Below are positions 18,679 through 35,232 of a stretch of 64,000 nt of DNA, piece by piece. The stretch is from Candidatus Multivoradales bacterium (GTDB lineage Bacteria; Acidobacteriota; Thermoanaerobaculia; Multivoradales; JAHEKO01). The DNA lies in NCBI GenBank assembly GCA_965223155.1, contig CBDCVR010000013.1:448001-512000 (forward strand), read 5' to 3'. The notes beneath the pieces were generated by a model. The model was given only the letters and a program-made list of their open reading frames with translations, searched no databases and had not been told where the DNA came from. Numbering within the stretch: the stretch's first letter is position 1; every line of letters starts with the position of its first letter. Made by a program: the position numbers and the translations under genes.

Positions 18679-21384
<2,706 letters not shown>

Positions 21385-21427
21385 GGGCTCGGGCCGCCCT
21401 TCGACCGGGGCTCGCCCTAGACCGGCG

Positions 21428-22624
21428 CTACCAGTCGGTGTAGCCGGCGCGGGTGCGAACGCTGGCGCCGCCGTCGACGCGGACCCGGACGTTGTGCCAG
21501 GAGCCGTCGTTGCGCCGCTCGGAGGGGTAGTACCCGATCACGTACTGCCCGCGAAGCTCCGCCAGGATCTCTCCAAAGGCTCCGGCCAACTCGTCCGGAT
21601 CCTGCACGATCTGGATTCGTCCACCGCTCTCGTCAACCGCCCGGCGCAGCCTCCGGAACTCGGTTCGGTTGCCGTCGACGTCCCGCCATGAGCTCGTATA
21701 GGTGGGAATGGCCTCGGGGTCCGGAGCGTGGGTCAGGTAGATCCAGTAGATGAGGCTGGCGCTCCGGCGCGCCTTCTCCAGGACGTCGTCCATGCCCAGT
21801 ACGCTGTGCACGTCGGCACCGTCGGAGAACACGACCAGAACGCGCCGGCCTTGCTGGCGCTCCACCTGCTGCAGCGCGAGGAAGAGATGATCGGTGAGCG
21901 CGGTGCCGCCGGCGGCAACGACGTCTTCGAGCGCCGGCGCCAGCTCCGCTGCCGAATCCTCGAATCCGGTCGCCCGGAGCAACTGGTCCGAAAACAGCAT
22001 CACGCTCACCTCGTCCAGTTCGCGCATGCCGTTCAAGAAGACTCGAGCGCCTTCGAGGGCGCCGTCCAACCGCTCGCCCGTCATGCTGAGACTGCTGTCC
22101 AGCAGCAGCACCGCTGTCAGCGGTACGTCGCCGCGCTCGAACGTCACGATCTTCTGCGGAGTGCCCTCGTCCAAGACGCGAAAATCGCCGCGCTCGAGAT
22201 CCAGCCGGCGCCGGCCGCCTTCGGTGACGGTCACGTAGAGCTGCTGCAGCTCGATGTCCACGAGCTCATCGACGCGGAGCTTGGGTGTCGTAATCCGGCC
22301 TCTGGCCTGCGAGCCCGAGACCGTCTCGAGCACGACCTCGAAAACATGTTCGACGTTGTCCTGGCCGACGTCCACCAGGGCCTGGTACGGCGGACTGGTC
22401 ACCCGCATTTCGGACTTGCCATCGACCAGAAAGTCGACGTGCCGGACAGGCTCGTCCGAAACCGCCGTGGCCACGACCTCGACCAAACCGGAGACAAAAT
22501 CGGTGCCGAGTGGATAGTCGATGAAGATCCGTGGCTCTTCGGCTAGGGCCGGCCGAGCGAACCCCAAGAGCAGGACGCCGGCGACCAGCGCTCGTCCCGC
22601 CACTCGCCACATTCGCCGGCTCAC
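21428..22624 (-). CDS. Secreted Ig-like plus VWA domain protein
   Basis: Signal peptide; Big-like VDFLVDG; MIDAS DSSLSM, GGTALTD, VFSDGAD; ELRGQYVIGY...VRTRAGY. Confidence 0.9.
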   Translation of the reverse strand: MSRRMWRVAGRALVAGVLLLGFARPALAEEPRIFIDYPLGTDFVSGLVEVVATAVSDEPVRHVDFLVDGKSEMRVTSPPYQALVDVGQDNVEHVFEVVLETVSGSQARGRITTPKLRVDELVDIELQQLYVTVTEGGRRRLDLERGDFRVLDEGTPQKIVTFERGDVPLTAVLLLDSSLSMTGERLDGALEGARVFLNGMRELDEVSVMLFSDQLLRATGFEDSAAELAPALEDVVAAGGTALTDHLFLALQQVERQQGRRVLVVFSDGADVHSVLGMDDVLEKARRSASLIYWIYLTHAPDPEAIPTYTSSWRDVDGNRTEFRRLRRAVDESGGRIQIVQDPDELAGAFGEILAELRGQYVIGYYPSERRNDGSWHNVRVRVDGGASVRTRAGYTDW

Positions 22625-23748
22625 GAAGCGTCCTCCCCGTCTTCCTCCCCGCCCAGCCCCAGGCCGGAAGCCAGAAGAGGCAGCCGGTCGGTCATGGCCT
22701 GGATGAGCCCCGCGCGGGCTTCCTCGAGTCCGGCCCTGGGGTAGGAGTCGTAGATCTGGCGCGGGCCCGAGCCGCTGGCCGTCTGCTCGCTCAACCGATT
22801 GAGGAGATTCCAGGCCTCGGTCCGACGCTTCGAACCCTCGAGCAGCCGGATCAGCTGAAGGGTCAGGTTCTGGTCACCGGGCAGTTCCTCCAGCGCGCCC
22901 CGGAGCACGGTCTCGGCCGCGTCCACTCGACCGAGTTGGATCAGAAGGCGGGCGCGCTCCTGCGCCGCGATCGAGCGGATCCATTCCGCCGTCGCCTCGC
23001 TCGCCAGGCGCTCCAGGTCCCGTAGCGCGGCTTGCTGGGTCGCGTCCTGCGCTTCCGAGGCCAGCTTCGGCACGAGCCGAACTCGACATAGCGTCAGTCT
23101 CAGCTCGGCCTCCTCGAAACCCGGCCGCATTTCCAGCAAGCGCTCGAAGTATTCGACCGCCCGCTCGTACTCGCCGCCCTTTTCGAAATTGGCCCCCAGG
23201 CTCCAGATCGCGAAGACATTGCGCGGGTCCAGGGCGACGGCCTTGTAGAAGAACTCGGTCGAGCCCGCGAGCGCACGCTGCTCCTGCAAGTTCGCGGCGA
23301 AGCTGATCCGGACCCAGGCGGCGAAGTCGCGGGCAGCGCGCGAGTCCCCCTTCTCGGCGTAGAAGTCCGCCAGCTCGGTGGCCATGACCCGGGCGTGCCC
23401 GGCGAGGACGCCGCGGCCGTTCTCGAGATAGTGCTGGTAGGCCTCGTGGTGCAGCATCACGACCGGTATCAGGATGTCGGGAGGCTGGCCGTCCAACACT
23501 TCGCGCAGCACACCCAGCTTGAGCTTCCAGAAGGCCTCCAACCGCTTCTGATTCGGATCCGAGCCGAAAGCCTCGTGCTCGAGCTTAGCTAGCGGCGCCA
23601 GAGCCGGCTCGACACCCTCGGCCGCCAGGGTCCTGAGCACCGCCCGGTACCGAAGTTGGACCGTCCTGGGCCTGAGCGCGGCGCTCAACTGCGCGCTTGC
23701 GAGAAGCACGAGACCGGCGAAAACTAGGAAGGTGGATCGGCGAGGCAC
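22621..23748 (-). CDS. Secreted TPR-repeat protein
   Basis: Signal peptide after GTG 23748 (start inferred); TPR pattern KAVALDPRNVFAIWSLG...GEYERAVEYFERLLEMRP; stop overlaps the VWA gene start. Confidence 0.8.
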   Translation of the reverse strand: MPRRSTFLVFAGLVLLASAQLSAALRPRTVQLRYRAVLRTLAAEGVEPALAPLAKLEHEAFGSDPNQKRLEAFWKLKLGVLREVLDGQPPDILIPVVMLHHEAYQHYLENGRGVLAGHARVMATELADFYAEKGDSRAARDFAAWVRISFAANLQEQRALAGSTEFFYKAVALDPRNVFAIWSLGANFEKGGEYERAVEYFERLLEMRPGFEEAELRLTLCRVRLVPKLASEAQDATQQAALRDLERLASEATAEWIRSIAAQERARLLIQLGRVDAAETVLRGALEELPGDQNLTLQLIRLLEGSKRRTEAWNLLNRLSEQTASGSGPRQIYDSYPRAGLEEARAGLIQAMTDRLPLLASGLGLGGEEDGEDAS

Positions 23749-23952
23749 GATGGTTTGGAACGTCCGCCCGGCGGGTTGGGGGGTCCGGGCGTGGACGGAA
23801 AAATACCACAAAGCACCACCTCCGAGCACGTGGTAACGTCCGGCGCTCAAGGCCCCCCGCAACTCGGCCCACGCTCCTCTGGAACCGCAGCGGCCGCTTC
23901 GCACGCTGCGCCCGAGGGCCATCCGCTCGCAAGCCGCTCCGGCACGTCACGA

Positions 23953-26037
23953 ATGACCGAACAACCCGAACGCCTCGAAAAGCAGCTCGGGTTCTTCTCC
24001 ATCTACGCCATCGCCACCGGTACTACGCTGAGCGCCGGGATTTTTCTGCTGCCGGGCATTGCGGCCCTCCAGGCGGGACCCGCGTTGGTCCTCTCCTACC
24101 TCCTGGCGGTGGTACCGCTGATCCCGGCCACCTGCAGCATCTTGGAGCTCTCGACCGCGCTTCCCCGCGCCGGAGGCGTCTACTATTTCCTGGACCGAAG
24201 CTTGGGGCCGGCGGTGGGCTCGGTCGGCGGCTGGGGGACCTGGCTGGCGCTGCTCCTCAAAGTGGCCTTCGCGTTGGTCGGGATGGGTGCGTACATCGCG
24301 CTGTTTCAGCCGGACCTGCCGATTCGCCCTCTGGCGATCGCGATCGCCCTTGCCCTGGGCGGACTCAATCTCTTTGGCGCGCGCAAGAGCGGCCAGGTGC
24401 AGCTCTTGCTCGTGGTCGGGCTCCTGGTCGTCTTGACTGGCTTCATCGCCATGGGTCTGGTGCGCATGGAGCCAACGCACTTCAATGACTTCACCGCTGC
24501 CGGACTGGACGGCATCGTGGCCACCGCCGGCTTGGTGTTCATCAGTTACGTCGGCGTGACCAAGGTCGCGAGCCTGTCCGAGGAAGTCGCCGATCCGGAG
24601 CGGACGCTACCCGTGGCAGTCTTCCTGGCGCTGGCCACCGCCGTGCTCATCTATGGCCTTGCGACTCTGGTCCTGGTCGGGGTGCTGCCGCTGCCCGAGT
24701 TCCAAGGCGACTTGACGCCGATGGCCTCCGCCGCCGACCGCATCCTGGGCCGCTGGGGCCTGGTGCTGGTCTCAGCCGCCGCGCTCGCCGCCTTCACCTC
24801 GGTCGCGAACGCCGGCACCCTGTCCTCCTCCCGCTATCCGCTCGCCATGAGTCGCGACCATCTGATGCCGCCGCTCTTTCGCCGGCTGAACAGCGCCAAG
24901 GTGCCGTATGCCAGCGTTGCTCTATCGACTTTGGTTCTGGTCGTGATCCTCACGTTTCTGGACGTCGCCAAGATCGCCAAGCTGGCGAGCTCGTTTCAAC
25001 TCCTCATGTTCGCCCTGGTTTGCCTGGCGGTAATCGTCCTACGCGAAAGCCGGCTCGAGGCCTACGACCCGGGATTTCGCTCGCCTCTCTACCCCTGGAT
25101 GCAGCTCTTCGGGATCGCCGCCTCGGTCGTCATGATCTGGAGCATGGGTCCACTGACCAAGTACTTCAGTCTCGGCTTCGTCGCCGCCGGCCTCCTTTGG
25201 TATCGCTTCTACGCCCACGGCAAGGTCTCCAGAAGCGGCGCCATCTACCACCTGCTGGCCCGCATCGCGAACCGGCGGCTGGACCTCGGCCTGGAATCGG
25301 AGCTGCGCCAACTCCTGCGGGAAAAGGGCCTGCGCGATGACGATCCGTTCGAGAGCACTGTCACCGCTGCGCGCTTCGTGGATCTGGACGACGAGGAGCC
25401 GGTCTTCGACGACATCACCATGGCGGTCGCGGACTCGCTCGAACTGGACGTCCCCGCCAGCCGCGACGAGCTCAATTCCGGCTTCCTGGAGGGCAACCGC
25501 CTGGGCACCACCTTGGTCGCCGACGGCGCCGCGATGCCCCATCTGCGCCTCTTCGGGATCGAACGGCCGGAACTGGTCATCGTCCGTGCCCGGCGGGGCG
25601 TCCAGGTGGACGTGACCGACGTTCACGGCGAGCATTCCCACACCGAGCCCGCTTACGCTCTCTTCTACCTGGTCAGCCCCGAGGAGAATCCCCAGCAGCA
25701 CTTCCGAATCCTGGCCGAGCTGGCCGAGCGGGTGGCCTCAGCCGGCTTTGTCGAGGCCTGGCGGCGAGCGGACGACGAGCAGAGCGTCAAAGAGATCCTC
25801 TTGCGTGACGAGCACTTTCTCTCGGTCCGCATCCGCTCTGGAGCGCCCAGCGGCGAGTTCATCGGCCGGACCATTCGCGAGATCTCGCTGGGAGACGACG
25901 TGCTCATCGCCTTGATCCATCGCCAGGGCGAGATCACCGTACCGCGCGGCCAGGTGGTCCTTCAGGAGCACGACCGGCTGACCCTGCTAGGAGAGCCGAC
26001 GCGCATCCTGAGCCTGCGAGAGCGGTTCTCGCCGTAG
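23953..26037 (+). CDS. APC-superfamily permease fused to PTS EIIA-like and RCK-C (TrkA-C) domains
   Basis: GIFLLPG, ELSTALPRAGG, SYVGVTKVASLSEEVADPERTLP, SRYPLAMSRD; EIIA GTTLVADGAAMPH...HFRILAELA; RCK-C IGRTIREI...PRGQVVLQEHDRL. Confidence 0.9.
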   Translation: MTEQPERLEKQLGFFSIYAIATGTTLSAGIFLLPGIAALQAGPALVLSYLLAVVPLIPATCSILELSTALPRAGGVYYFLDRSLGPAVGSVGGWGTWLALLLKVAFALVGMGAYIALFQPDLPIRPLAIAIALALGGLNLFGARKSGQVQLLLVVGLLVVLTGFIAMGLVRMEPTHFNDFTAAGLDGIVATAGLVFISYVGVTKVASLSEEVADPERTLPVAVFLALATAVLIYGLATLVLVGVLPLPEFQGDLTPMASAADRILGRWGLVLVSAAALAAFTSVANAGTLSSSRYPLAMSRDHLMPPLFRRLNSAKVPYASVALSTLVLVVILTFLDVAKIAKLASSFQLLMFALVCLAVIVLRESRLEAYDPGFRSPLYPWMQLFGIAASVVMIWSMGPLTKYFSLGFVAAGLLWYRFYAHGKVSRSGAIYHLLARIANRRLDLGLESELRQLLREKGLRDDDPFESTVTAARFVDLDDEEPVFDDITMAVADSLELDVPASRDELNSGFLEGNRLGTTLVADGAAMPHLRLFGIERPELVIVRARRGVQVDVTDVHGEHSHTEPAYALFYLVSPEENPQQHFRILAELAERVASAGFVEAWRRADDEQSVKEILLRDEHFLSVRIRSGAPSGEFIGRTIREISLGDDVLIALIHRQGEITVPRGQVVLQEHDRLTLLGEPTRILSLRERFSP

Positions 26038-26081
26038 ACTCGCCCACTCAAGCGTCATTGGCGCCTCTCTTGGCGGGACGA

Positions 26082-27650
26082 TCAGGCCAGGAGCAGCGGC
26101 AGGCGCTCGATTGCCGTAGCCTGGGACAACCCCAGCAGGTGAGCGCCCCGGACCACCGCGTCGAGATCGACCGGGTACAGGTTCCGGCGGCCGGGCTCGG
26201 CCAGGCCGGCCAGATTCCAAGGCTCGATCGCCCGCCGGATCCACCGCTCGAAAGACTCGTCCCGGTTCTCGAAGTCCGAGGCCGCGAGACGACGACATGC
26301 CTCATCCAGCAGGGCCTCCCGCTCGGGCCGGCCGCCTCCCAGGAATCCCGACCAATGAGCCCGCTCGCGTCGCTCCAGCAGCATCCGTTGCTCCACTTCA
26401 GCAAAGCTCACCAGCGAGAAGTACAGGAGCGCGTGGGCGATGGCGCGGCCAGGACGCTCGCGTGCCAGGTAGGCACCATGGACCAGCCGTTCGATCTGAT
26501 CGGCCTCGGCGGCGAGAAGCGCGGCGTAGCGGCCGGTGTCGGGCTCGTCCCCGCACAAGATCTCGGACAGGCGCTCCACCGCGATCAGGGTCCAAGCGAT
26601 GCCGGTGGAGAACAGCGGTTCGAAGAATGCGTAGGCGTGCGGCAAGGCCGCCCAGGAGACGCCGGCGGGCCGCTCACGACGGTACTGGAGCTCGGGCACC
26701 GAGCGCCAGGGACGGATCGGCCGAGCGGTCTCGAACACCTCGGCCAAGGTGGGATACCGGGCCACGACTCGCGTCCACAGCGCCTTGGGCTCCCGCTTGG
26801 AGAGCGCGGCCCGGGCCTCTCGATCGATGGTAACCAGGCCCACGCTCGTCACCCCGCCATCAAAGGGAAGAAGGTAGATCCAGCCCTCGTCCACGAAGTG
26901 ATGCACCGCGGCCCGAAACTCCGCATACGGCCCCGGCTCCGCACCCCTCAAGACGGGCGGCGCGGCCTCGACGCCTTCGAGATGGCTGAAGAGCAGTCCC
27001 GACCGGAAGCGCGCCGGGCGCGGGCGGCGTTCGGCGCCCAGGGTTTGGCTCACGACTCCAGCCCTCCCGGACGCATCGACCACGAATCCCGCCCGGACGG
27101 CCTCAGTCGGACCGCGGTTGTCCGTCGAGGCTAGCTCCAGACGCATTCCACCCGGCTCCACCACGACGTCGACGACCTCGGTGTTCTCACGGAGCTCGAC
27201 CCCGCGATCCCGGGCCCGGGCCGCCAGGAACGCGTCTACGTCGGCCCGCAGCCAGTGCGTGTCGGCCAGCTCATCGTCAGGCGAAGCCGCCACCAGGAGG
27301 CGCCGGCCGGCGGCCGGGTCCGGATCGAACCGCTGCCCGGGCCGATGCCACCAGAACGTGAAGCCGCGCTTGAGGCCGCGCTCGAGCTCGGGTCGCCGCT
27401 TGCGCCAGCGCCCATAGGTGGCCAGATCGCGAAGCTCCGGGAACTCGTACCTCCCGGCCAGGCGTTGGAGGCTCAGGTTGGCAAGCGGCGTCGTCGACTC
27501 ACCCAGGGCAAAGCGCGGATGCCTTCCCCGCTCAACCACGAGGACCCTCCGTCCCCGAGAAGCCAGGCAGCCTCCCAGTATCGTGCCCCCGAAACCGCCG
27601 CCCACGATGGCGACGTCGTACCGGTCCCCGGCTCGGCCTCCGCTCATCAT
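26082..27650 (-). CDS. Flavin-dependent halogenase-like oxidoreductase
   Basis: DVAIVGGGFGG, HPRFALGESTTP, GLKRGF (putative catalytic Lys), VVDASGR, GWIYLLP (variant WxWxIP), FFEPLFSTG (FxxPxxSxG). ATG overlaps the upstream stop. Confidence 0.8.
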   Translation of the reverse strand: MMSGGRAGDRYDVAIVGGGFGGTILGGCLASRGRRVLVVERGRHPRFALGESTTPLANLSLQRLAGRYEFPELRDLATYGRWRKRRPELERGLKRGFTFWWHRPGQRFDPDPAAGRRLLVAASPDDELADTHWLRADVDAFLAARARDRGVELRENTEVVDVVVEPGGMRLELASTDNRGPTEAVRAGFVVDASGRAGVVSQTLGAERRPRPARFRSGLLFSHLEGVEAAPPVLRGAEPGPYAEFRAAVHHFVDEGWIYLLPFDGGVTSVGLVTIDREARAALSKREPKALWTRVVARYPTLAEVFETARPIRPWRSVPELQYRRERPAGVSWAALPHAYAFFEPLFSTGIAWTLIAVERLSEILCGDEPDTGRYAALLAAEADQIERLVHGAYLARERPGRAIAHALLYFSLVSFAEVEQRMLLERRERAHWSGFLGGGRPEREALLDEACRRLAASDFENRDESFERWIRRAIEPWNLAGLAEPGRRNLYPVDLDAVVRGAHLLGLSQATAIERLPLLLA

Positions 27651-28669
27651 CCGTGCGGTTGGGCCGGCGGCTGCCCAGCGGCCGGACCGGACGGACAATC
27701 TGGGCAGGGAGCTCCGTCGAGGACCTCCGCGGCGCCGCTCTCGGCCGCCTCCATGAGTCGAGCCAGCCGCGCTTCCGAGCAGGACGGGCAGCGGCCGAAC
27801 GAGGCGAGATCCCAGGTGTCCAGCAGGACGGTTCCGCCAGTGAGTCCCAGAGCCCGGCCGAACACCCTTTCGACCTCGGCCAGGTCCGGCGCCCGGAATT
27901 CCCCCCCCTCGGCCAGCCGCTCCAGCGCGCCGTTGCCTCCTCGCACGGGGATTAGCGAGACGGTCTCGACACCGTGCTCGAAGGCGTAGGCCGCGCTCAG
28001 CACCGGCCAATGCTCCCGCTCCGACTCCGGCACATACGGGGCGCCGACGAGGACGAACGCCCGTACCGGAATCCCGCTCGCGTCCAGGAATTCGAGAGCC
28101 CGATCGAAGTCGTCGCGACTCATTGCCTTGTTCAGCCGCGGTAGCGCCCGAGGATGGATCGTCTCGAGACCGATGGCCACCTCCAGGCATCCACCCAGAG
28201 CTTCATGAAAGCGCGTAACGCCGGGGCCCAAGAAGGCGGGGTGGCATTCCGCCACCACCCGCTCGTATCCCGCGCACAGGCCCGCCAGGGCGCCCAAGTC
28301 CTCCTCGGGCACGGCGCGCGGATCGAAGAAGTTCGAGGCGTTGTAGAGCTTGAGGCGGGCTCCCGGCGGCGGCTCGCCCGCCTCCCGCAGAACCGCGTCG
28401 AGCTGTCGCGGCAACACTCCGGGCGGCGTCGGCCCCTCCAGCGTGTGCTGCCACAGGTCGCAGAAAACGCACGAGAACGGACACTCGGCGCCGGCCAGAA
28501 ACACGGTCACCGAACGGACCTTCCGGCCGCCGGCCCGCTCCTTCTCGATCAACGTACCGATAGCCGCATTGGGATCGGGCGGCCGCTTGGCTTCCCGCAG
28601 GCTTCGAACCCACCGGCCCGCGCCGGCCGTCTGGCTTCCGACCCGGGCGGCGTCCCCGGGCCCGGTCAC
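27647..28669 (-). CDS. Radical SAM protein resembling the archaeosine-pathway RaSEA family
   Basis: CPFSCVFC (CX3CX2C); KLYNASNFFD, AECHP, LEVAIGLETIHP, LNK motifs recall RaSEA; GTG 28669 overlaps the upstream TGA. Confidence 0.8.
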   Translation of the reverse strand: MTGPGDAARVGSQTAGAGRWVRSLREAKRPPDPNAAIGTLIEKERAGGRKVRSVTVFLAGAECPFSCVFCDLWQHTLEGPTPPGVLPRQLDAVLREAGEPPPGARLKLYNASNFFDPRAVPEEDLGALAGLCAGYERVVAECHPAFLGPGVTRFHEALGGCLEVAIGLETIHPRALPRLNKAMSRDDFDRALEFLDASGIPVRAFVLVGAPYVPESEREHWPVLSAAYAFEHGVETVSLIPVRGGNGALERLAEGGEFRAPDLAEVERVFGRALGLTGGTVLLDTWDLASFGRCPSCSEARLARLMEAAESGAAEVLDGAPCPDCPSGPAAGQPPAQPHG

Positions 28670-30012
28670 GCCCGCCGCGGGCTCGGATCGGCGTAGAGCG
28701 AGGTGAAGTGCCGGCGATAGGCCTCTGCGCTCGCCCCGAAGATCCGCGCGAAGTCGTCGCCGGAAGTCGCGCCGGTCTGAAAGCGGCACTTGGGGAAGAC
28801 CGGCATTTCGAATCCGAGAACCGAGCGTACGCCGCTCGCCACGATCTCGCCCTTGAGGGCGTAGAGGCGCTCGTGGTCGCCGTCCGCCAGCTCGGAAAAG
28901 GGAATCGCCGAGGCGATCTCGACCAGACGCGGTGACGTGTAGGGGCTAAACCCGACGAAGCCCAGCCTGCGGGCGGGCGCGAAGGTGCGTACGCAACCGC
29001 GGCTCAAGCCGCCACTGTAGGTCAGCGAGTGCTTGATGCAGTCGACGCCCCATCCCTCCTGGTACAGCATCGGGTTGTTGACTACGCTCCGGATGGTGAG
29101 CTCGGGATTTTCCTCGATCGGGTAGTCCTTCAGGTTTTCGTCGCCGCCGTCGCCATCGATCAGGAAGGTCCAGTCCGCATACCGGGCTCGCAACGCCTCC
29201 AGAAGGGCCAGATTCACCGCCGCGCACTCCACGTCCCGAGGCTTGTAGTCCTCAATCGCTTCGATCGCTCGGAGCGGATCCACCGCGCCCGCCGGGACCT
29301 CGATCGGCTCCAGGAAAAGCTCCAGATCCAGTGCGGAGAGAAAGGCGCGGGACTGCTCCAGATCGCTGCCCCCGCCGTCCACGGCAAGGGTGAAGGCCTT
29401 GAGCCTGGCCGGAGACTGACCGCGCTCCAGCAGACCGCGGTACACCGACAGAAACACCGAGCCACTGTCGATTCCCCCGGAGAACAGGACACCGATGGGC
29501 TCGCGCTCGGGCTGAGAGTCCAGCCAGTGCCCCACCTGGGTGTGAAGCGCACCGACGTAGCTGTGCCCGATGGCATCGACCTTGGCCGTCAGGGCCGCGG
29601 GCCGCTCGGCCACGAAGCGGACATGCTCCGGATTGGGATCGGGACAGCCGATGAGCCGGAGCGAGGTGACGTGATGCGCGGGCACCATCCGCGTGTAGGA
29701 CGGATGGAACTGCTCCGCGTACCCCTCCTCCGCCAGGGTCGTCTCGATCTCGGCGATCGACTCGGCAACTACCAGGAGCGGCCCCTCGACTTCCTTCGCC
29801 AGAAAGTAGCGCAGGGGACGATCCAGGGAGCGAGCCAAGAACACCACCTCGTCACAGCGCGCGGCGAGAGCGAAAGACCCCTCGACCGCGCCAAAGGCTT
29901 CGGCATTGCCCGAGGCCAGGACCTCCCTGGCTTCCTCAACGCTGTGGTGCCATAGACGCTGGCCCTCCGGCCGCGTCCGATCGATCATCCGGGCTACGTA
30001 ATCTGCTCGCAT
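28666..30012 (-). CDS. Asparagine-synthetase-like ATP-dependent amide ligase without an N-terminal glutaminase Cys
   Basis: PP-loop VLFSGGIDS, LKAFTL, DGDGGDE, SPY...LK; degenerate GATase-II remnant (EGSFALA...FLARSLDRPLRYF); SD GAGGAG. Confidence 0.85.
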   Translation of the reverse strand: MRADYVARMIDRTRPEGQRLWHHSVEEAREVLASGNAEAFGAVEGSFALAARCDEVVFLARSLDRPLRYFLAKEVEGPLLVVAESIAEIETTLAEEGYAEQFHPSYTRMVPAHHVTSLRLIGCPDPNPEHVRFVAERPAALTAKVDAIGHSYVGALHTQVGHWLDSQPEREPIGVLFSGGIDSGSVFLSVYRGLLERGQSPARLKAFTLAVDGGGSDLEQSRAFLSALDLELFLEPIEVPAGAVDPLRAIEAIEDYKPRDVECAAVNLALLEALRARYADWTFLIDGDGGDENLKDYPIEENPELTIRSVVNNPMLYQEGWGVDCIKHSLTYSGGLSRGCVRTFAPARRLGFVGFSPYTSPRLVEIASAIPFSELADGDHERLYALKGEIVASGVRSVLGFEMPVFPKCRFQTGATSGDDFARIFGASAEAYRRHFTSLYADPSPRRA

Positions 30013-30057
30013 CGCTCGTCTCCTCGAGGCCGGCACCGAACGTCCGGAGCCGCTGGA

Positions 30058-30066
30058 ATCTTACCA
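30058..30066 (-). promoter_or_regulatory. Extended -10 promoter of the ligase/rSAM/halogenase operon
   Basis: TGGTAAGAT (TGn-TAAGAT) about 45 nt upstream of ATG 30012. Confidence 0.45.
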
Positions 30067-30110
30067 GCGCGACGCCCGCGGGCAGAGCCGACTCGGCAGC
30101 CGTTCCGCCG

Positions 30111-31586
30111 CTACCGGTCAACCCAGTAATTGGGCGCTTCCTTGGTGATCACGACATCGTGGGCGTGGCTCTCCTTGTGCCCCGCTGCCGTCACCCGCGC
30201 CAGCCGGGCCTCGGTTCTGAGCTCCTCGATCGAGGCGCAGCCGGCAAGCCCCATGCCGGCGCGAAGGCCGCCCACGACCTGGGCCAGCATCTGATGCACG
30301 CTTCCCTTGAAGGGGACCATCCCTTCGATGCCTTCGGGCACCATCTTGGCGAGCTCGCCTTCACTGCTCTGGAAGTACCGGTCGGCGCTGCCCTTGCGCA
30401 TGGCCGAAATCGAGCCCATTCCCCGGTGGGCCTTGTACGAGCGGCCTTGGTACAGGATGGTCTCCCCAGGGCTCTCCTCGGTACCCGCAAACAACGAACC
30501 GATCATGACCGAGTGCCCGCCGGCGGCGACCGCCTTGACCACGTCACCCGAGAACTTGATGCCGCCGTCGGCGATCACCGGCAGGTCGTGCTCGGCGGCA
30601 GCCCGGGCGCAATCCAGAACCGCGCTCACCTGGGGCAAACCGGCGCCGGTCACGATCCGGGTGGTGCAGATGGAGCCCGGCCCGATGCCCACCTTGACGC
30701 CGTCGACGCCTCGTTCAGCGAGCGCTCGTACGCCCTCGCCGGTGGCCACGTTCCCCGCCACCAGACGCACCTCGGGCAACGCCTCGCGCAGCCGCGAGAG
30801 CCCGTCTAGGACACCCCAACTGTGGGCGTGCGACGAATCCAGCACCAGGAAGTCCACCTTGGCCGCCACCAGCGCCTGGGCGCGCTCGACCGCGTCGCCC
30901 CCCGAGCCCACCGCGCCGCCGACCCGCAGGCGGCCCAGGTCGTCCTTGCAGGCATTCGGGAACCGTTCGGCCTTTTCGATGTCCTTGACGGTAATCAACC
31001 CCTTGAGCTCGCGGGCTTCGTCGACCACCAGGAGCTTCTCGATCCGGTGCCGGTGGAGCAGCTCCTTCGCCTCTTCCAGGGTCGTGCCCTCGGCAACGGT
31101 TACCAGATCCTGGCTGGTCATCACCGCCTCGATCGGCTGCTCCAGATCGCTCTCGAAGCGCAGGTCCCGATTCGTCAGGATGCCGGCCAGCTTGCCGGAG
31201 GCTTCGGTCACCGGCACGCCCGAGATCTTGTAGCGGGCCATCACCTCCAGGGCTTCCCGCAGTTTCTGGTCCGGGCGCATGGTGACCGGGTCCACGATCA
31301 TGCCGGCCTCGCTACGCTTGACCCGGTCTACCTCCGCGGCCTGATCCGCGATGGTGAGATTCTTGTGGATCACGCCGACGCCGCCCTCCTGAGCCAAGGC
31401 GATGGCGAGCCGAGACTCGGTCACGGTGTCCATCGCCGCCGCCACGATCGGGACGTTGAGATGGATTCCACGGCACAGTCGCGTCCGCAGATCGACCTCG
31501 TTCGGATGGACCCCGGAGTACGCCGGGACCAGCAGCACGTCATCGAAGGTCAGGGCGACGGGAAGATCGGATTTGGGATCGGGCAT
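30111..31586 (-). CDS. guaB: IMP dehydrogenase
   Basis: [21 protein letters not shown] pair, [24 protein letters not shown]. Confidence 0.98.
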
Positions 31587-31691
31587 CGCTCGCCAGGGGT
31601 TGCCGGAGAGTATCAGAGGACGGAGAGTCGGACGCCGCCTTACACGGCTCAGGGGAATCCCGGGTCGGGGCGGCGAGCCGCGGTGCTCCTC

Positions 31692-32546
31692 CTAGGAGGA
31701 ATACTCGTAGAAGCCGCGGCCGCTCTTGCGGCCCAGGCGCCCGGCCAGCACCATCTTCTTGAGGAGCGGCGGCGGCGCGAAGCGGGTCTCCCGGTACTCC
31801 TCGAACATGATGTTGGCGATGTAGTAGGTGGTGTCGAGGCCCACGAAGTCGAGCAAAGTGAACGGCCCCATCGGATAGCCGCAACCGAGCTGCATCGCCT
31901 TGTCGATGTCTTCGACCGAGCCGACGCCGGTCTCGTAGGCGCGGATCGCGTCCAGCAGGTAGGGCACCAAGAGCCGGTTGACGATGAAGCCCGAGTTGTC
32001 CTGGCAGGCCACCGGCTGCTTGCCAATCGCCTCAACAAAGCGAAACGCGGCATCGAACGCCTCGTCCGAGGTCATCAAGGTGCGGATCACCTCGACCAGC
32101 TTCATGACCGGAACCGGATTGAAGAAATGCAGGCCCAGGAACCAGTCTGTCCGCTCGGTCGCCATCGCCAGCTCGGTGATGGTCAGCGATGACGTATTGC
32201 TGGCGAATAGCGCCTCCGGTTTGACGATCTTGTCGAGAGCGGCGTAGGTCCGGCACTTCTCTTCGACGTTCTCGATAATCGCCTCCACGATCAGGTCGCA
32301 GTCGGCCAGGTCGCCGTCGTCGGTGGTGCCGGTCAGGCGTTCGAGGGCTCCATCCCTGGCTTCCTCGTCCAGCTTGCCCTTGGCCACCGCCCGGTCCAGG
32401 GACTTGGCGATCCTGCCCAGCCCCTTCTCCAAGAATTCCTCGTTGACCTCCCGGACGACGGTCTCGAGCCCGGCCTTGGCGGCCACTTCGGCGATGCCCG
32501 CTCCCATCAGTCCACAGCCCAGCACTCCTACCTTCTGAATCTCCAT
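31692..32546 (-). CDS. hbd: 3-hydroxybutyryl-CoA dehydrogenase
   Basis: GCGLMGAGIA, EAIIEN, SNTSSL, GLHFFNPVPVMKLVE, GFIVNRLL, GYPMGP, GRLGRKSGRGFY. Confidence 0.95.
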   Translation of the reverse strand: MEIQKVGVLGCGLMGAGIAEVAAKAGLETVVREVNEEFLEKGLGRIAKSLDRAVAKGKLDEEARDGALERLTGTTDDGDLADCDLIVEAIIENVEEKCRTYAALDKIVKPEALFASNTSSLTITELAMATERTDWFLGLHFFNPVPVMKLVEVIRTLMTSDEAFDAAFRFVEAIGKQPVACQDNSGFIVNRLLVPYLLDAIRAYETGVGSVEDIDKAMQLGCGYPMGPFTLLDFVGLDTTYYIANIMFEEYRETRFAPPPLLKKMVLAGRLGRKSGRGFYEYSS

Positions 32547-32567
32547 CGACTTGTCTCCTCGTTCCGG

Positions 32568-32984
32568 CTAGCCGGTCAGTTCCTGCATTCTGCGTTCAGA
32601 GTCCGCGCCCGCCTCGATCCTGAGACGCAGCGCGTCGGGAACCGGAAACGGCAGCTTCTCGGCCCACTCCACCACCTTGACTCCCTCGCCCGCGAGCAGC
32701 TCCTCCAGCCCCAGCGCCTCGATCTCGGCCGCCTCCACTCGGTAGAGGTCGACGTGCACGAGCCGGGCACCGGAAGCATTGTATTCGTGAATCAGGGAAA
32801 AGGAAGGCGACTGAATCTCATCCGGTTCGAAGCCCAAGCCGGCGGCGACGCCCTGCGTAAGCACGGTCTTGCCCGCGCCCATGGGGCCGGACAGGAGCAG
32901 GATGCCGTTCGGGGCGAGCTCGGCTGCGAGCTCGCCGCCCACCGCGCGCGTCTCCTCCGGGTTCGCCGCCGTCCAGGTTCTCAC
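32568..32984 (-). CDS. tsaE: tRNA threonylcarbamoyladenosine biosynthesis ATPase
   Basis: LSGPMGAGKT, QSPSFSLIHEY, HVDLYR, VVEWAE; GTG 32984 overlaps the nnr stop. Confidence 0.95.
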   Translation of the reverse strand: MRTWTAANPEETRAVGGELAAELAPNGILLLSGPMGAGKTVLTQGVAAGLGFEPDEIQSPSFSLIHEYNASGARLVHVDLYRVEAAEIEALGLEELLAGEGVKVVEWAEKLPFPVPDALRLRIEAGADSERRMQELTG

Positions 32985-34537
32985 CCGGAGCTCGCTCTGG
33001 ACAGGCTGCCCAGAGCCTCCGGCAAGGCCGCCACGACGTCCGAAGCGTTGAGCCCGATCTCGCCCAGGACGCCGGCGGCCAGATCGCCGGCCAGGCCATG
33101 CGCGAACGTGGCGACCTGCGCCGCCCTCAACGGCACCAGCCCCTGGCCTGGCAAGGCCGCGACCGTGCCGGTCAAGACGTCCCCCGTGCCACCGCTGGCC
33201 AGCCCCGGATTGCCCGTGGAATTGACGAACACGCCCCCTCCGGCTTCCGCGATCACGCTCGGCCGGCCCTTGAGGAGGACCAGGGCCCCGGTCGCCTCCG
33301 CCGCCCGCCGCGCCCAGGTCACGCGTTCCGCGCCGACCTCGGCGGTCGAGCACTCCATGAGCCGCGCCAGCTCGCCGGAATGCGGCGTCAGAATCCGCGG
33401 AGCCGGGGATCCGGCCAGCTCGTCCGCTCGACCCGCGAAAGCGTTGATGGCGTCGGCGTCCACCACCACCACTCCGTCCAACGAGCCGACGACCTCCCGG
33501 ACCACGGTGGCGGTCTCGCCCTCCAAGCCCAGTCCCGGGCCGAGCGCCACCGCGCTCTTGCCCTCGGCACTCTCCAGGATCCTCGCCGCCGCCGCCTCGC
33601 CGAGTCCGCCGCCGCCGGCTTCCGGCAGCGCCAGGGTCATGGACTCGATCGAGGCCAAGTCCACGGCGTCCCGGCACGAGGCCGGCGTGGCCACGGTAAC
33701 CAGGCCGGCGCCCGCGCGCACCGCCGCCCGGGCGGCCAGAATCGCCGCCCCGGTCTTGCCTGGAGATCCCGCAACCAGCAGGACGTGGCCGCAATCGCCC
33801 TTGTGCGCCGTCGCCGGGCGCGCCGGCAGCGCCCCGGCCACGCTGGCCTCGTCCAACCAGTGGAGATCCCCGGGAGCGGACTCGATCAGGCTCTCGGGAA
33901 TTCCCAGGTCGCTCACGTACACTCGGCCGGCGGCCCCGGCCGCCGGAAAGAAGACGTGCGCCGGCTTGAGCGCGCCCAGCGCAACCGTCGCTCGCGCCGG
34001 CAAATGCGGCCCGAACCGGGCGCTCGAGTCGCCGTTGAGGCCGCTCGCCAGATCGACCGCCACCGAGGGCGCCCTCAGACCCGCCACGGCCTCGACCAGG
34101 TCCGCGAACTGCCCGTCAAGCGGCCGCGACAATCCGGTCCCGAAGAGTGCATCGACCACCGCGTCGGCACCGGCCGCCGCCGTCACCGCGGCTTCAATGG
34201 CCTCGCCGGCCCCGATCTCGATCATCGGCCCTTGCATTCCGCCGAGAATGCGGCGCTGCATCGCGGCCTCGCCCGAGCATTTCCGGCCGCCGGTGATCAC
34301 AACGGCGGTGGCATCGACCCCGCGCACCAAGAGATGCCGGGCCACCGCCAGTCCGTCGCCACCGTTGTTGCCCGGCCCGCACAAGACCACGACGCGGCCG
34401 GCCTCCGGGAACTCCCGGTCCAGGACCTCCACCACGCCCAGAGCGGCGTTCTCCATCAGCACCGCGCCGGGTACGCCCAGCTCCTCGATGGCGGTTCGGT
34501 CCACGCCGCGCATCGCTTCGTTGGCGAGGATTCTCAT
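32981..34537 (-). CDS. nnr: Bifunctional NAD(P)H-hydrate epimerase/dehydratase (NnrE-NnrD, YjeF)
   Basis: LMENAA, CGPGNNGGDG, VDALFGTG, HKGDCG, GPGLG, LTPHSGE, GGTGDVLTG. Confidence 0.97.
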   Translation of the reverse strand: MRILANEAMRGVDRTAIEELGVPGAVLMENAALGVVEVLDREFPEAGRVVVLCGPGNNGGDGLAVARHLLVRGVDATAVVITGGRKCSGEAAMQRRILGGMQGPMIEIGAGEAIEAAVTAAAGADAVVDALFGTGLSRPLDGQFADLVEAVAGLRAPSVAVDLASGLNGDSSARFGPHLPARATVALGALKPAHVFFPAAGAAGRVYVSDLGIPESLIESAPGDLHWLDEASVAGALPARPATAHKGDCGHVLLVAGSPGKTGAAILAARAAVRAGAGLVTVATPASCRDAVDLASIESMTLALPEAGGGGLGEAAAARILESAEGKSAVALGPGLGLEGETATVVREVVGSLDGVVVVDADAINAFAGRADELAGSPAPRILTPHSGELARLMECSTAEVGAERVTWARRAAEATGALVLLKGRPSVIAEAGGGVFVNSTGNPGLASGGTGDVLTGTVAALPGQGLVPLRAAQVATFAHGLAGDLAAGVLGEIGLNASDVVAALPEALGSLSRASSG

Positions 34538-35232
34538 GCTGGAGCCAGCAGGCGCCAGGAGCGCAGGAGATCGGCGGTGGCGGGCGCCGAAACCGCTCCC
34601 AGGTTCAGGTGCTCGATCAAACGCTCGAGATCCTCGGGGCGATCGACGTCTGAGGCCTCATCCAGGAGCTCGACGCCCAGGCCCAGCTCGAGACAGCGTT
34701 CGAGAGTCGCCGCAAGGACACCGTCGGTGCTCCAGGGCACATCCTGGAAGAGGCGCCGATTCAGAACTCCCTGCCGGGCAGCGATCAGGTAGTAGCCGCC
34801 ATCCAGGGCCGGCCCGATCGCCACGTCTTCACCCTGGCGCAGCACCTCGAGCGCTCGCTCGACGGTGGCCAGCGGCAGCTCGGGATGATCGGAGCCGATC
34901 GCCGCCACCAGGGGATAGCGTTCTCCGGCGGTCCGGAGCGCGTTCCAGAGCCGGTCGCCCAGGCTCGCGCCTACCTGACGGAGGACGGGCGGATCCGCTC
35001 TCGAGAATTCGGACGGCAGTCTCGGCGGCATCTCGCCCTCGTCCAGGGCCCAGGTCAGATGCAGATCGAAGTCTCCGGGCTGCAAGCGAGCGATCAGATC
35101 GGTGACAAAGGCCCAGTGGAGCTCTGCCGCCTGCTCGGCGCTCAACCCGGCCGCCGCTTCTCCGACCAACCGGGTCTTCACCCGGCCCGGATGCGCCGGC
35201 TTGGTGAAAAGAAGAACAGCGGCGTCCTGCAC
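34534..35232 (-). CDS. DUF2064 / CofC-like glycosyltransferase-fold protein
   Basis: KPAHPGRVKTRL, QVGASLGDRL, IGSDHPEL, GPALDGGYYLI, VPWST, DVDRPEDL. Confidence 0.9.
   Translation of the reverse strand: MQDAAVLLFTKPAHPGRVKTRLVGEAAAGLSAEQAAELHWAFVTDLIARLQPGDFDLHLTWALDEGEMPPRLPSEFSRADPPVLRQVGASLGDRLWNALRTAGERYPLVAAIGSDHPELPLATVERALEVLRQGEDVAIGPALDGGYYLIAARQGVLNRRLFQDVPWSTDGVLAATLERCLELGLGVELLDEASDVDRPEDLERLIEHLNLGAVSAPATADLLRSWRLLAPA

Follow-up and report, generated by a model that had tools for sequence, protein, structure and literature searches.

The window analyzed here is a stretch of 64,000 nucleotides from contig CBDCVR010000013.1 of a Candidatus Multivoradales bacterium (Acidobacteriota). 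It raises the question of what is made by three overlapping genes that encode an AsnB-fold ligase, a radical S-adenosylmethionine (SAM) enzyme and a flavoprotein. The reading to which we give an even chance is that this cassette is a self-contained cytoplasmic set of three enzymes that makes or modifies a compound, in which the ligase and the radical SAM enzyme form an obligate pair and the flavoprotein adds an optional late step. Gene structure, folds, catalytic motifs, conservation, co-occurrence and the order of dependence among the three genes are observations.

Structure, conservation and co-occurrence of the cassette

Coordinates and translation of the minus strand agree with the initial annotation, made from the sequence alone, that the three genes are joined by a GTGA overlap between ligase and radical SAM gene and an ATGA overlap between radical SAM and flavoprotein gene (Table 1). 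The enzyme types assigned there are matched by the Pfam families Asn_synthase, Radical_SAM and Trp_halogenase. Its statement that no nonribosomal peptide synthetase (NRPS), polyketide synthase (PKS) or carrier domain occurs nearby also holds: none was found among 19 large neighbouring open reading frames (ORFs). None of 54 small ORFs (50-199 residues, positions 21000-35000) matches any Pfam family at E <= 0.001, although a very short precursor peptide may be encoded elsewhere. The extended -10 ascribed to the cassette is present as the word TGGTAAGAT (30066..30058), which lies together with a GAGGAG element in the 98-base gap between guaB and the ligase gene. However, a consensus promoter scan of 25900..30300 gave 0 sites, so that this candidate promoter is a motif only. 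The scan of the same region returned one terminator-like site, located inside the ligase gene, a count within chance expectation.

Table 1. Positions of the cassette genes and of nearby features in the window
Feature	Position	Strand	Details
AsnB-fold ligase gene	28666..30012	minus	ATG 30012, TGA 28668-28666, 448 aa
Radical SAM gene	27647..28669	minus	GTG 28669, TGA 27649-27647, 340 aa
Flavoprotein gene	26082..27650	minus	ATG 27650, stop at 26082, 522 aa
Extended -10-like word TGGTAAGAT	30058..30066	minus	46 bases 5' of ligase ATG; sequence inspection
Shine-Dalgarno-like GAGGAG	30020..30025	minus	8-13 bases 5' of ligase ATG; sequence inspection
guaB (IMP dehydrogenase)	30111..31586		ligase gene 98 bases downstream

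The distribution of the cassette was assessed with a ligase profile in a collection of species genomes, which gave at least 592 pattern matches, at least 560 of them confirmed, and the best 80 were taken as loci. Species records that encode the ligase thus number at least 560 and fall into eight named phyla. Carriers are labelled Acidobacteriota, Gemmatimonadota, Planctomycetota, Bacteroidota, Balneolota, Rhodothermota and Fidelibacterota, and single bins are labelled Pseudomonadota and Myxococcota. Homologues of the radical SAM enzyme amount to at least 2968 proteins at E <= 0.001, with 8000 candidates scored. The order ligase, radical SAM enzyme, flavoprotein is found in 64 of the best 80 loci. 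The others have the flavoprotein first (one), ligase and radical SAM enzyme (eight), ligase and flavoprotein (one) or the ligase only (six), and several incomplete loci stop at a contig edge. Among 20 loci from the window's own taxonomic order, 17 harbor the full trio, two only the pair and one only the radical SAM gene. As the same gene order recurs in 17 of 20 and 64 of 80 loci, the arrangement is far beyond chance; the genes flanking the cassette are not conserved across loci.

Conservation of the trio had been set as a test by the initial annotation; the shared gene order stands and speaks for the reading proposed there, but the flavoprotein is dispensable. The ligase and radical SAM genes occur in the identical 29 of 41 related genomes (29 of 40 without the unpublished negative genome G005). 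An orthologue of the flavoprotein accompanies the pair in 27 of these 29 genomes and was not found in G019 (100% complete) and G023 (98% complete). None of the 12 related genomes without the pair contains it, G030 having just a 33%-identical paralogue. The pair without flavoprotein also occurs in loci of Bacteroidota. Because the pair occurs alone and the flavoprotein orthologue never occurs without it in the 41 genomes, the pair forms the core of the cassette, and the flavoprotein is the dependent member.

Within the genus of the window genome (G000), the interval between secA and guaB harbors the cassette in G000 and G001 and none in G002, G003 and G004, where no remnant was detected at the empty site. 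Within the genus the cassette is thus either present or lacking as a whole, at a single site. In a sample of the phylum the ligase was present in 17 of 201 genomes (16 of 200 without the unpublished G068). A quick tree of 46 ligase sequences separates into two well-supported halves, one formed by Planctomycetota, Bacteroidota, Fidelibacterota, Balneolota, Rhodothermota and two Acidobacteriaceae, the other by the remaining Acidobacteriota, Gemmatimonadota and the single bins labelled Myxococcota and Pseudomonadota. The tree mostly tracks the phylum labels, with 10 label changes where the minimum possible is 8. Three single-sequence fusions of ligase and radical SAM enzyme and one read-through from radical SAM enzyme to flavoprotein were found; they are too thin as evidence because a one-base error at the four-base overlaps would create such fusions.

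Some cassettes are irregular. In G024 (C5:106162-109845) and G033 (C86:150105-153949) the radical SAM match lies in two or three pieces, and the ligase match of G024 contains a TAA; these cassettes may be decaying, or may reflect assembly errors. The cassette of G039 seems to be dispersed, with radical SAM, ligase and flavoprotein genes on three contigs (C154, C275, C357). Its radical SAM gene lies among other genes on a contig of 27 kb, about 4 kb from a propeller gene of the kind described below.

The three enzymes and their predicted chemistry

The ligase matches Asn_synthase (PF00733) with an E value of 2.4e-9 and 37.7 bits (cut-off 21), a match limited to residues 170-304. Its PP-loop reads SGGIDSG, and S178, G180, D182, S183 and G184 are invariant in 37 aligned sequences from several phyla. 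An AlphaFold2 model (predicted local distance difference test, pLDDT, 87) was best matched in Foldseek by beta-lactam synthetase (1mbz/1jgt; E about 1e-13, template modelling score, TM, about 0.6). Matches spanning both domains comprise beta-lactam synthetase, human ASNS, E. coli AsnB, CarA and TsnB9 (E 1e-13 to 1e-10, TM 0.54-0.66). Searches by sequence against the PDB returned nothing credible (best E 0.12, an unrelated protein), and in the protein atlas only unnamed Asn_synthase clusters are matched. As had been stated at the outset, the ligase lacks the glutaminase nucleophile. The protein starts with MRADY, or with MPASRR if an alternative upstream GTG start is used; the cysteine is absent in either, and no conserved N-terminal cysteine was found in 20 or 37 aligned homologues, whose N-terminal columns are variable. 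Beta-lactam synthetase and CarA likewise lack the glutaminase cysteine.

The cassette ligase thus resembles beta-lactam synthetase, CarA and TsnB9 in its two-domain AsnB fold (TM 0.57-0.66, E about 1e-13) and its PP-loop. It differs from them by an identity of 13-18% and by invariant N-domain residues of its own, and no beta-lactam or hydroxamate gene cluster surrounds it. These invariants are Q101, F102, Y106, T107, R108, M109, P111 and H113 and the word G122-C123-P124-D125-P126 (37 sequences). Judged from sequence, the N-domain is not a relic. The dense invariant set in residues 101-128, including a cysteine (window about 29629..29712, minus strand), may form a second functional site. A lasso peptide cyclase is not indicated by the profile NF033535 (14.2 bits, below the cut-off of 525), and no lasso-type neighbours (B protease/RRE, precursor) lie beside the ligase. 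Homologues in the clusters P0129 (31 members) and P0130 (33 members) are 889-895 residues long, with about 440 extra N-terminal residues. They were rejected as ligase fusions: the extra halves are of low complexity and match no family, and most likely stem from ORFs that were called too long in high-GC DNA.

Alternatively, the ligase could be an ordinary asparagine or amide synthetase that depends on ammonia and just happens to lie beside two unrelated genes, which we consider highly improbable. No gene of the window genome reaches the cut-off of TIGR01536 for asparagine synthetase B (best of seven matches 106.6 versus 267.1 bits), so that a non-canonical asparagine synthetase is conceivable. 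However, the ligase is the weakest of these seven matches (26.6 bits; 26.6-26.9 bits across searches), it was not found in 12 of the 41 related genomes, and it shows perfect co-occurrence and a four-base overlap with the radical SAM gene. Asparagine in the window genome may be made via another route.

The radical SAM enzyme matches PF04055 (E 4.1e-8). The cysteines of its CX3CX2C motif (C63, C67, C70) are all invariant in 42 sequences, and a CxxC...CxxC arrangement follows in the C-terminal part (C294/C297 and C322/C325). TIGR01210, the RaSEA family, is matched by all 42 family members and is their most frequent family (best E 2.2e-35); weak matches to TIGR01212 (MnmL/YtqA; best E 3.3e-7) occur in 27 of the 42. 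Against the PDB the sequence gave nothing credible (best E 0.038, an unrelated protein). An AlphaFold2 model (pLDDT 92) was aligned first to queuine lyase 6p78 by VIA-align (Z 17.2, root-mean-square deviation 3.2, 217 residues aligned), a lead effectively tied with biotin synthase (Z 16.7) and HydE (Z 16.2), while PylB reached Z 15.3.

Two known systems are close to the pair of ligase and radical SAM enzyme. According to PMC11298593, RaSEA and ArcS work as a complex that uses lysine as the nitrogen donor, and preQ0-Lys-tRNA is turned into archaeosine by RaSEA. As in the ArcS-RaSEA system of Euryarchaeota, the gene of a putatively nitrogen-attaching enzyme adjoins a small radical SAM gene in the cassette, and for all 42 members tested RaSEA scores best among the described families. 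In contrast to that system, the partner is an ATP-dependent AsnB-fold ligase and not the PUA/TGT-like ArcS, and the cassette is bacterial, patchy and extended by a flavoprotein, and any link of it to tRNA is hypothetical. The second comparison is with MnmL/YtqA/YhcC (TIGR01212) and queuine lyase (6p78), which are likewise small radical SAM enzymes and cleave a C-N bond at an exocyclic nitrogen. YhcC/MnmL is described in 10.64898/2026.05.18.725915 to strip the carboxymethyl group off 5-carboxymethylaminomethyl-2-thiouridine (cmnm5s2U). Unlike the cassette enzyme, these proteins have no ligase partner but work singly, their substrates being tRNA or a free base.

The flavoprotein matches Trp_halogenase (PF04820) with an E value of 2.6e-16 and 60 bits (cut-off 21), and among proteins of known structure its sequence matches CtcP (7xgb, E 3.7e-47) and PltM (6bza, E 1.5e-44), over about 360 residues. 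Like these halogenases it possesses a flavin-binding GxGxxG motif (GGGFGG, residues 17-22), the word GESTTP and a lysine at the catalytic position. This residue, K94, lines up with the lysines of the PltM word GIKLGF and the CtcP word GQKSNF, is invariant in 28 of 28 homologues, and occupies what we take to be the position of the catalytic lysine K87 of PltM. Unlike PltM and CtcP, the protein carries a degenerate WxWxIP motif and C-terminal 160 residues that are specific to its family, and it stands in no polyketide or pyoluteorin context, its partners being the ligase and the radical SAM enzyme.

What follows on all substrates, on the direction and sequence of the reactions and on the use of halide is inferred from these relationships. 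The scheme runs from amide formation through radical cleavage to late halogenation because RaSEA and MnmL/YhcC cleave C-N bonds at an exocyclic nitrogen. In the first step the cysteine-less AsnB-fold enzyme, with its intact PP-loop, would adenylate a carboxylate, which would then be joined to an organic amine instead of ammonia from glutamine. The radical SAM enzyme would subsequently abstract a hydrogen beside the amide nitrogen, so that the C-N adduct is cleaved or rearranged. Finally, the PltM/CtcP-type flavoenzyme may halogenate, or possibly hydroxylate, an electron-rich ring of the product. A parallel in logic only is offered by the pyrrolysine pathway PylB-PylC-PylD. Its three enzymes, of the radical SAM, ATP-dependent amide ligase and oxidoreductase types, assemble a new compound out of ordinary amino acids, and no carrier protein is involved. 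PylB is among the structural matches of the radical SAM enzyme, as noted above, whereas the pyrrolysine ligase and oxidoreductase are not homologous to their counterparts in the cassette.

Taken together, the cassette combines known kinds of enzymes in a new way, each kind being represented by a new subfamily. None of the three proteins has a specific model in NCBIfam. The initial annotation knew of no characterised pathway with this trio, and none has come to light: no description of a cassette of ligase, radical SAM enzyme and flavoprotein was found in the portions of the published literature covered. No bacterial case was found in the literature on RaSEA and archaeosine, and nothing relevant on TIGR01210/COG1244. 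A compact enzyme set is kept by hundreds of soil and marine bacterial species, and no paper that explains it was found. As all three enzymes represent new subfamilies of chemically versatile superfamilies, the product of the cassette could reveal new chemistry. Possible outcomes are a radical route to form or trim amide bonds, a halogenated metabolite from soil phyla that are hard to culture, or a macromolecular modification. The question is directly testable, since two carriers, Novipirellula rosea JCM 17759 and Maioricimonas sp. JC845, are in culture.

Metabolite, macromolecule or propeller

Several observations weigh against an enzyme set that acts on a free compound by the scheme above. 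The radical SAM enzyme scores 53.6 bits against TIGR01210 (53.4 in a genome search) and does not reach the cut-off of 212.15, which was passed in the control genomes by three Euryarchaeota only. By profile score, RaSEA is the nearest described family, but the enzyme is placed beside rather than inside it. Its structural neighbours are generic, Elp3 and the pyruvate formate-lyase activating enzyme (PFL-AE) being the top matches in Foldseek, and its characterised relatives all target nucleosides or tRNA and no free metabolites. The WxWxIP motif of the flavoprotein reads GWIYLLPF, compared with GWMWIIPF in CtcP and GWLWVIPF in PltM; in the family it follows W-x-[WY]-x-L, with the first tryptophan invariant, isoleucine replaced by leucine and the proline position variable. 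Because of this degenerate motif the flavoenzyme may be an oxygenase. The mean column identity of the ligase across phyla is 67% (sequence identity 53-70%), which is unusually high for secondary metabolism. Finally, no transporter, regulator or riboswitch accompanies the cassette in the neighbourhoods and Rfam searches. Close to the window's cassette Rfam detected neither riboswitches nor other RNAs, and in eight diverse cassette loci only one tRNA, which does not adjoin the cassette.

A special case of the preferred reading had been put forward in the initial annotation: the ligase would couple lysine or another amino acid to the adenylated carboxylate, the radical SAM enzyme would cleave the adduct to a primary amide, and the halogenase would decorate the product. 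This variant agrees with the missing glutaminase cysteine and with RaSEA as nearest family, whose partner ArcS uses lysine and not ammonia as nitrogen donor, as described above. The AsnB fold also accepts unusual nitrogen donors, and the fold matches include TsnB9, which reportedly performs unusual nitrogen donor chemistry. However, of the description of the radical SAM enzyme as RaSEA-like only the kinship survives: the score cited above leaves the enzyme outside the RaSEA family, and this weakens the lysine variant. The first step catalysed by ArcS differs as well, since it acts on a nitrile without ATP, and nothing in the analysis singles out lysine. Furthermore, the AsnB-family enzyme PesC uses free ammonia and can proceed to nitriles, according to PMC13060819, so that a SAM-consuming nitrogen relay is not required. 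We regard the lysine variant as plausible in principle but improbable.

The main rival to a free compound is a macromolecule, with the cassette modifying a nucleoside of tRNA or rRNA, or else a side chain or one end of a protein. The closest relatives of the radical SAM enzyme, namely RaSEA, MnmL/YhcC and, as top structural match, queuine lyase, work on modified nucleosides, and the ligase is conserved at the level of housekeeping proteins. Housekeeping genes are also frequent neighbours (guaB here; tmk, holB, guaA and truA elsewhere), and no exporter or regulator is linked to the cassette. To these points may be added that AsnB-like enzymes, radical SAM enzymes and flavin halogenases all include peptide-modifying precedents, namely PesC, TsrC and lasso cyclases, as described in PMC13060819, and MibH, as described in PMC12424672. 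On the other hand, the spread is patchy, with 29 of 41 relatives and 17 of 201 phylum genomes as carriers, and the loss within one genus is clean. None of the cassette proteins contains a PUA, THUMP, TRAM, RRE, SPASM or RNA-binding domain in Pfam, the ligase and the radical SAM enzyme are acidic (isoelectric points 5.1 and 5.2), and neither the cassette nor its immediate surroundings contain a precursor gene. We also know of no halogenated nucleoside. Modification of a macromolecule is unlikely in our view.

A different partner is suggested by the neighbours of the cassette in other phyla. Genes for secreted-type FG-GAP propellers, often with UnbV_ASPIC and sometimes with TPR domains, occur in 40 of the 80 loci, in 29 of them within 500 bases of the cassette. 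They are distributed over five phyla: 29 of 38 loci in Gemmatimonadota, 5 of 7 in Bacteroidota, 1 of 1 in Fidelibacterota, 3 of 19 in Acidobacteriota and 2 of 10 in Planctomycetota. Of ten members of the propeller clusters that were checked, all contain FG-GAP_3 and seven UnbV_ASPIC. In Bacteroidota, two propeller genes lie immediately upstream of the cassette on the same strand. Because genomes carry 5-17 copies of UnbV_ASPIC, adjacency by chance is expected at about 2-7% per locus only. In the phylum sample, PF07593 was present in 17 of 17 ligase-positive and in 91 of 184 ligase-negative genomes (16 of 16 and 89 of 182 without the unpublished genomes G068, G093 and G194), counts in which related genomes are not independent samples.

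These observations are consistent with a cassette that makes a small cofactor or ligand for secreted FG-GAP/UnbV_ASPIC (CRTAC1-like) propellers, or that modifies the propellers before export. Pyrroloquinoline quinone (PQQ) and the quinoprotein propellers would be a parallel to such a ligand. If true, this would be the first biochemical handle on a large bacterial family without known function. However, the nearest propeller copies in the window genome lie more than 150 kb from the cassette, and no propeller orthologue that tracks the cassette was found among the related genomes. Clear orthologues of the short propeller are present in the cassette-negative G003, G009 and G010 and absent from the cassette-positive G001, and homologues of the long propeller occur in 39 of 41 related genomes irrespective of the cassette. 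An exporter linked to the cassette is also missing, and no function for bacterial FG-GAP/UnbV_ASPIC propellers was found in the listed titles of the literature. A role for the cassette in propeller maturation or ligand supply therefore appears improbable.

In the window genome itself, four paralogous FG-GAP/UnbV_ASPIC genes of 566, 568, 896 and 1283 residues are located at C14:765000-775200 (L113). Among them, the propeller of 1283 residues best matches the long TPR-propellers adjoining the cassette in other phyla.

Further neighbours and minor observations

A defence function was considered with the anti-phage models of PADLOC, of which 0 families match any of the three proteins at E <= 0.01; therefore the cassette is not a listed defence system. 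Genes of the DAHP-synthase family near the cassette were rejected as a pattern because they are inconsistent across loci; those in Bacteroidota encode 286 residues, presumably the length of KdsA.

The end of the flavoprotein gene is separated by 44 bases from the stop of an amino-acid permease gene that converges on it. The permease frame of 760 residues (23755..26037, plus strand) combines AA_permease_2 with a C-terminal phosphotransferase system (PTS) EIIA-2 domain and TrkA-C, an unusual regulatory fusion that is not kept beside the cassette elsewhere. On the minus strand, an ORF with a TsaE domain (32568..33794) and an ORF for a NAD(P)HX epimerase/dehydratase (32981..34537) overlap by about 800 bases. 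The TsaE domain comprises residues 277-402 of a frame of 408 residues, the true start of which is probably located near 33050.

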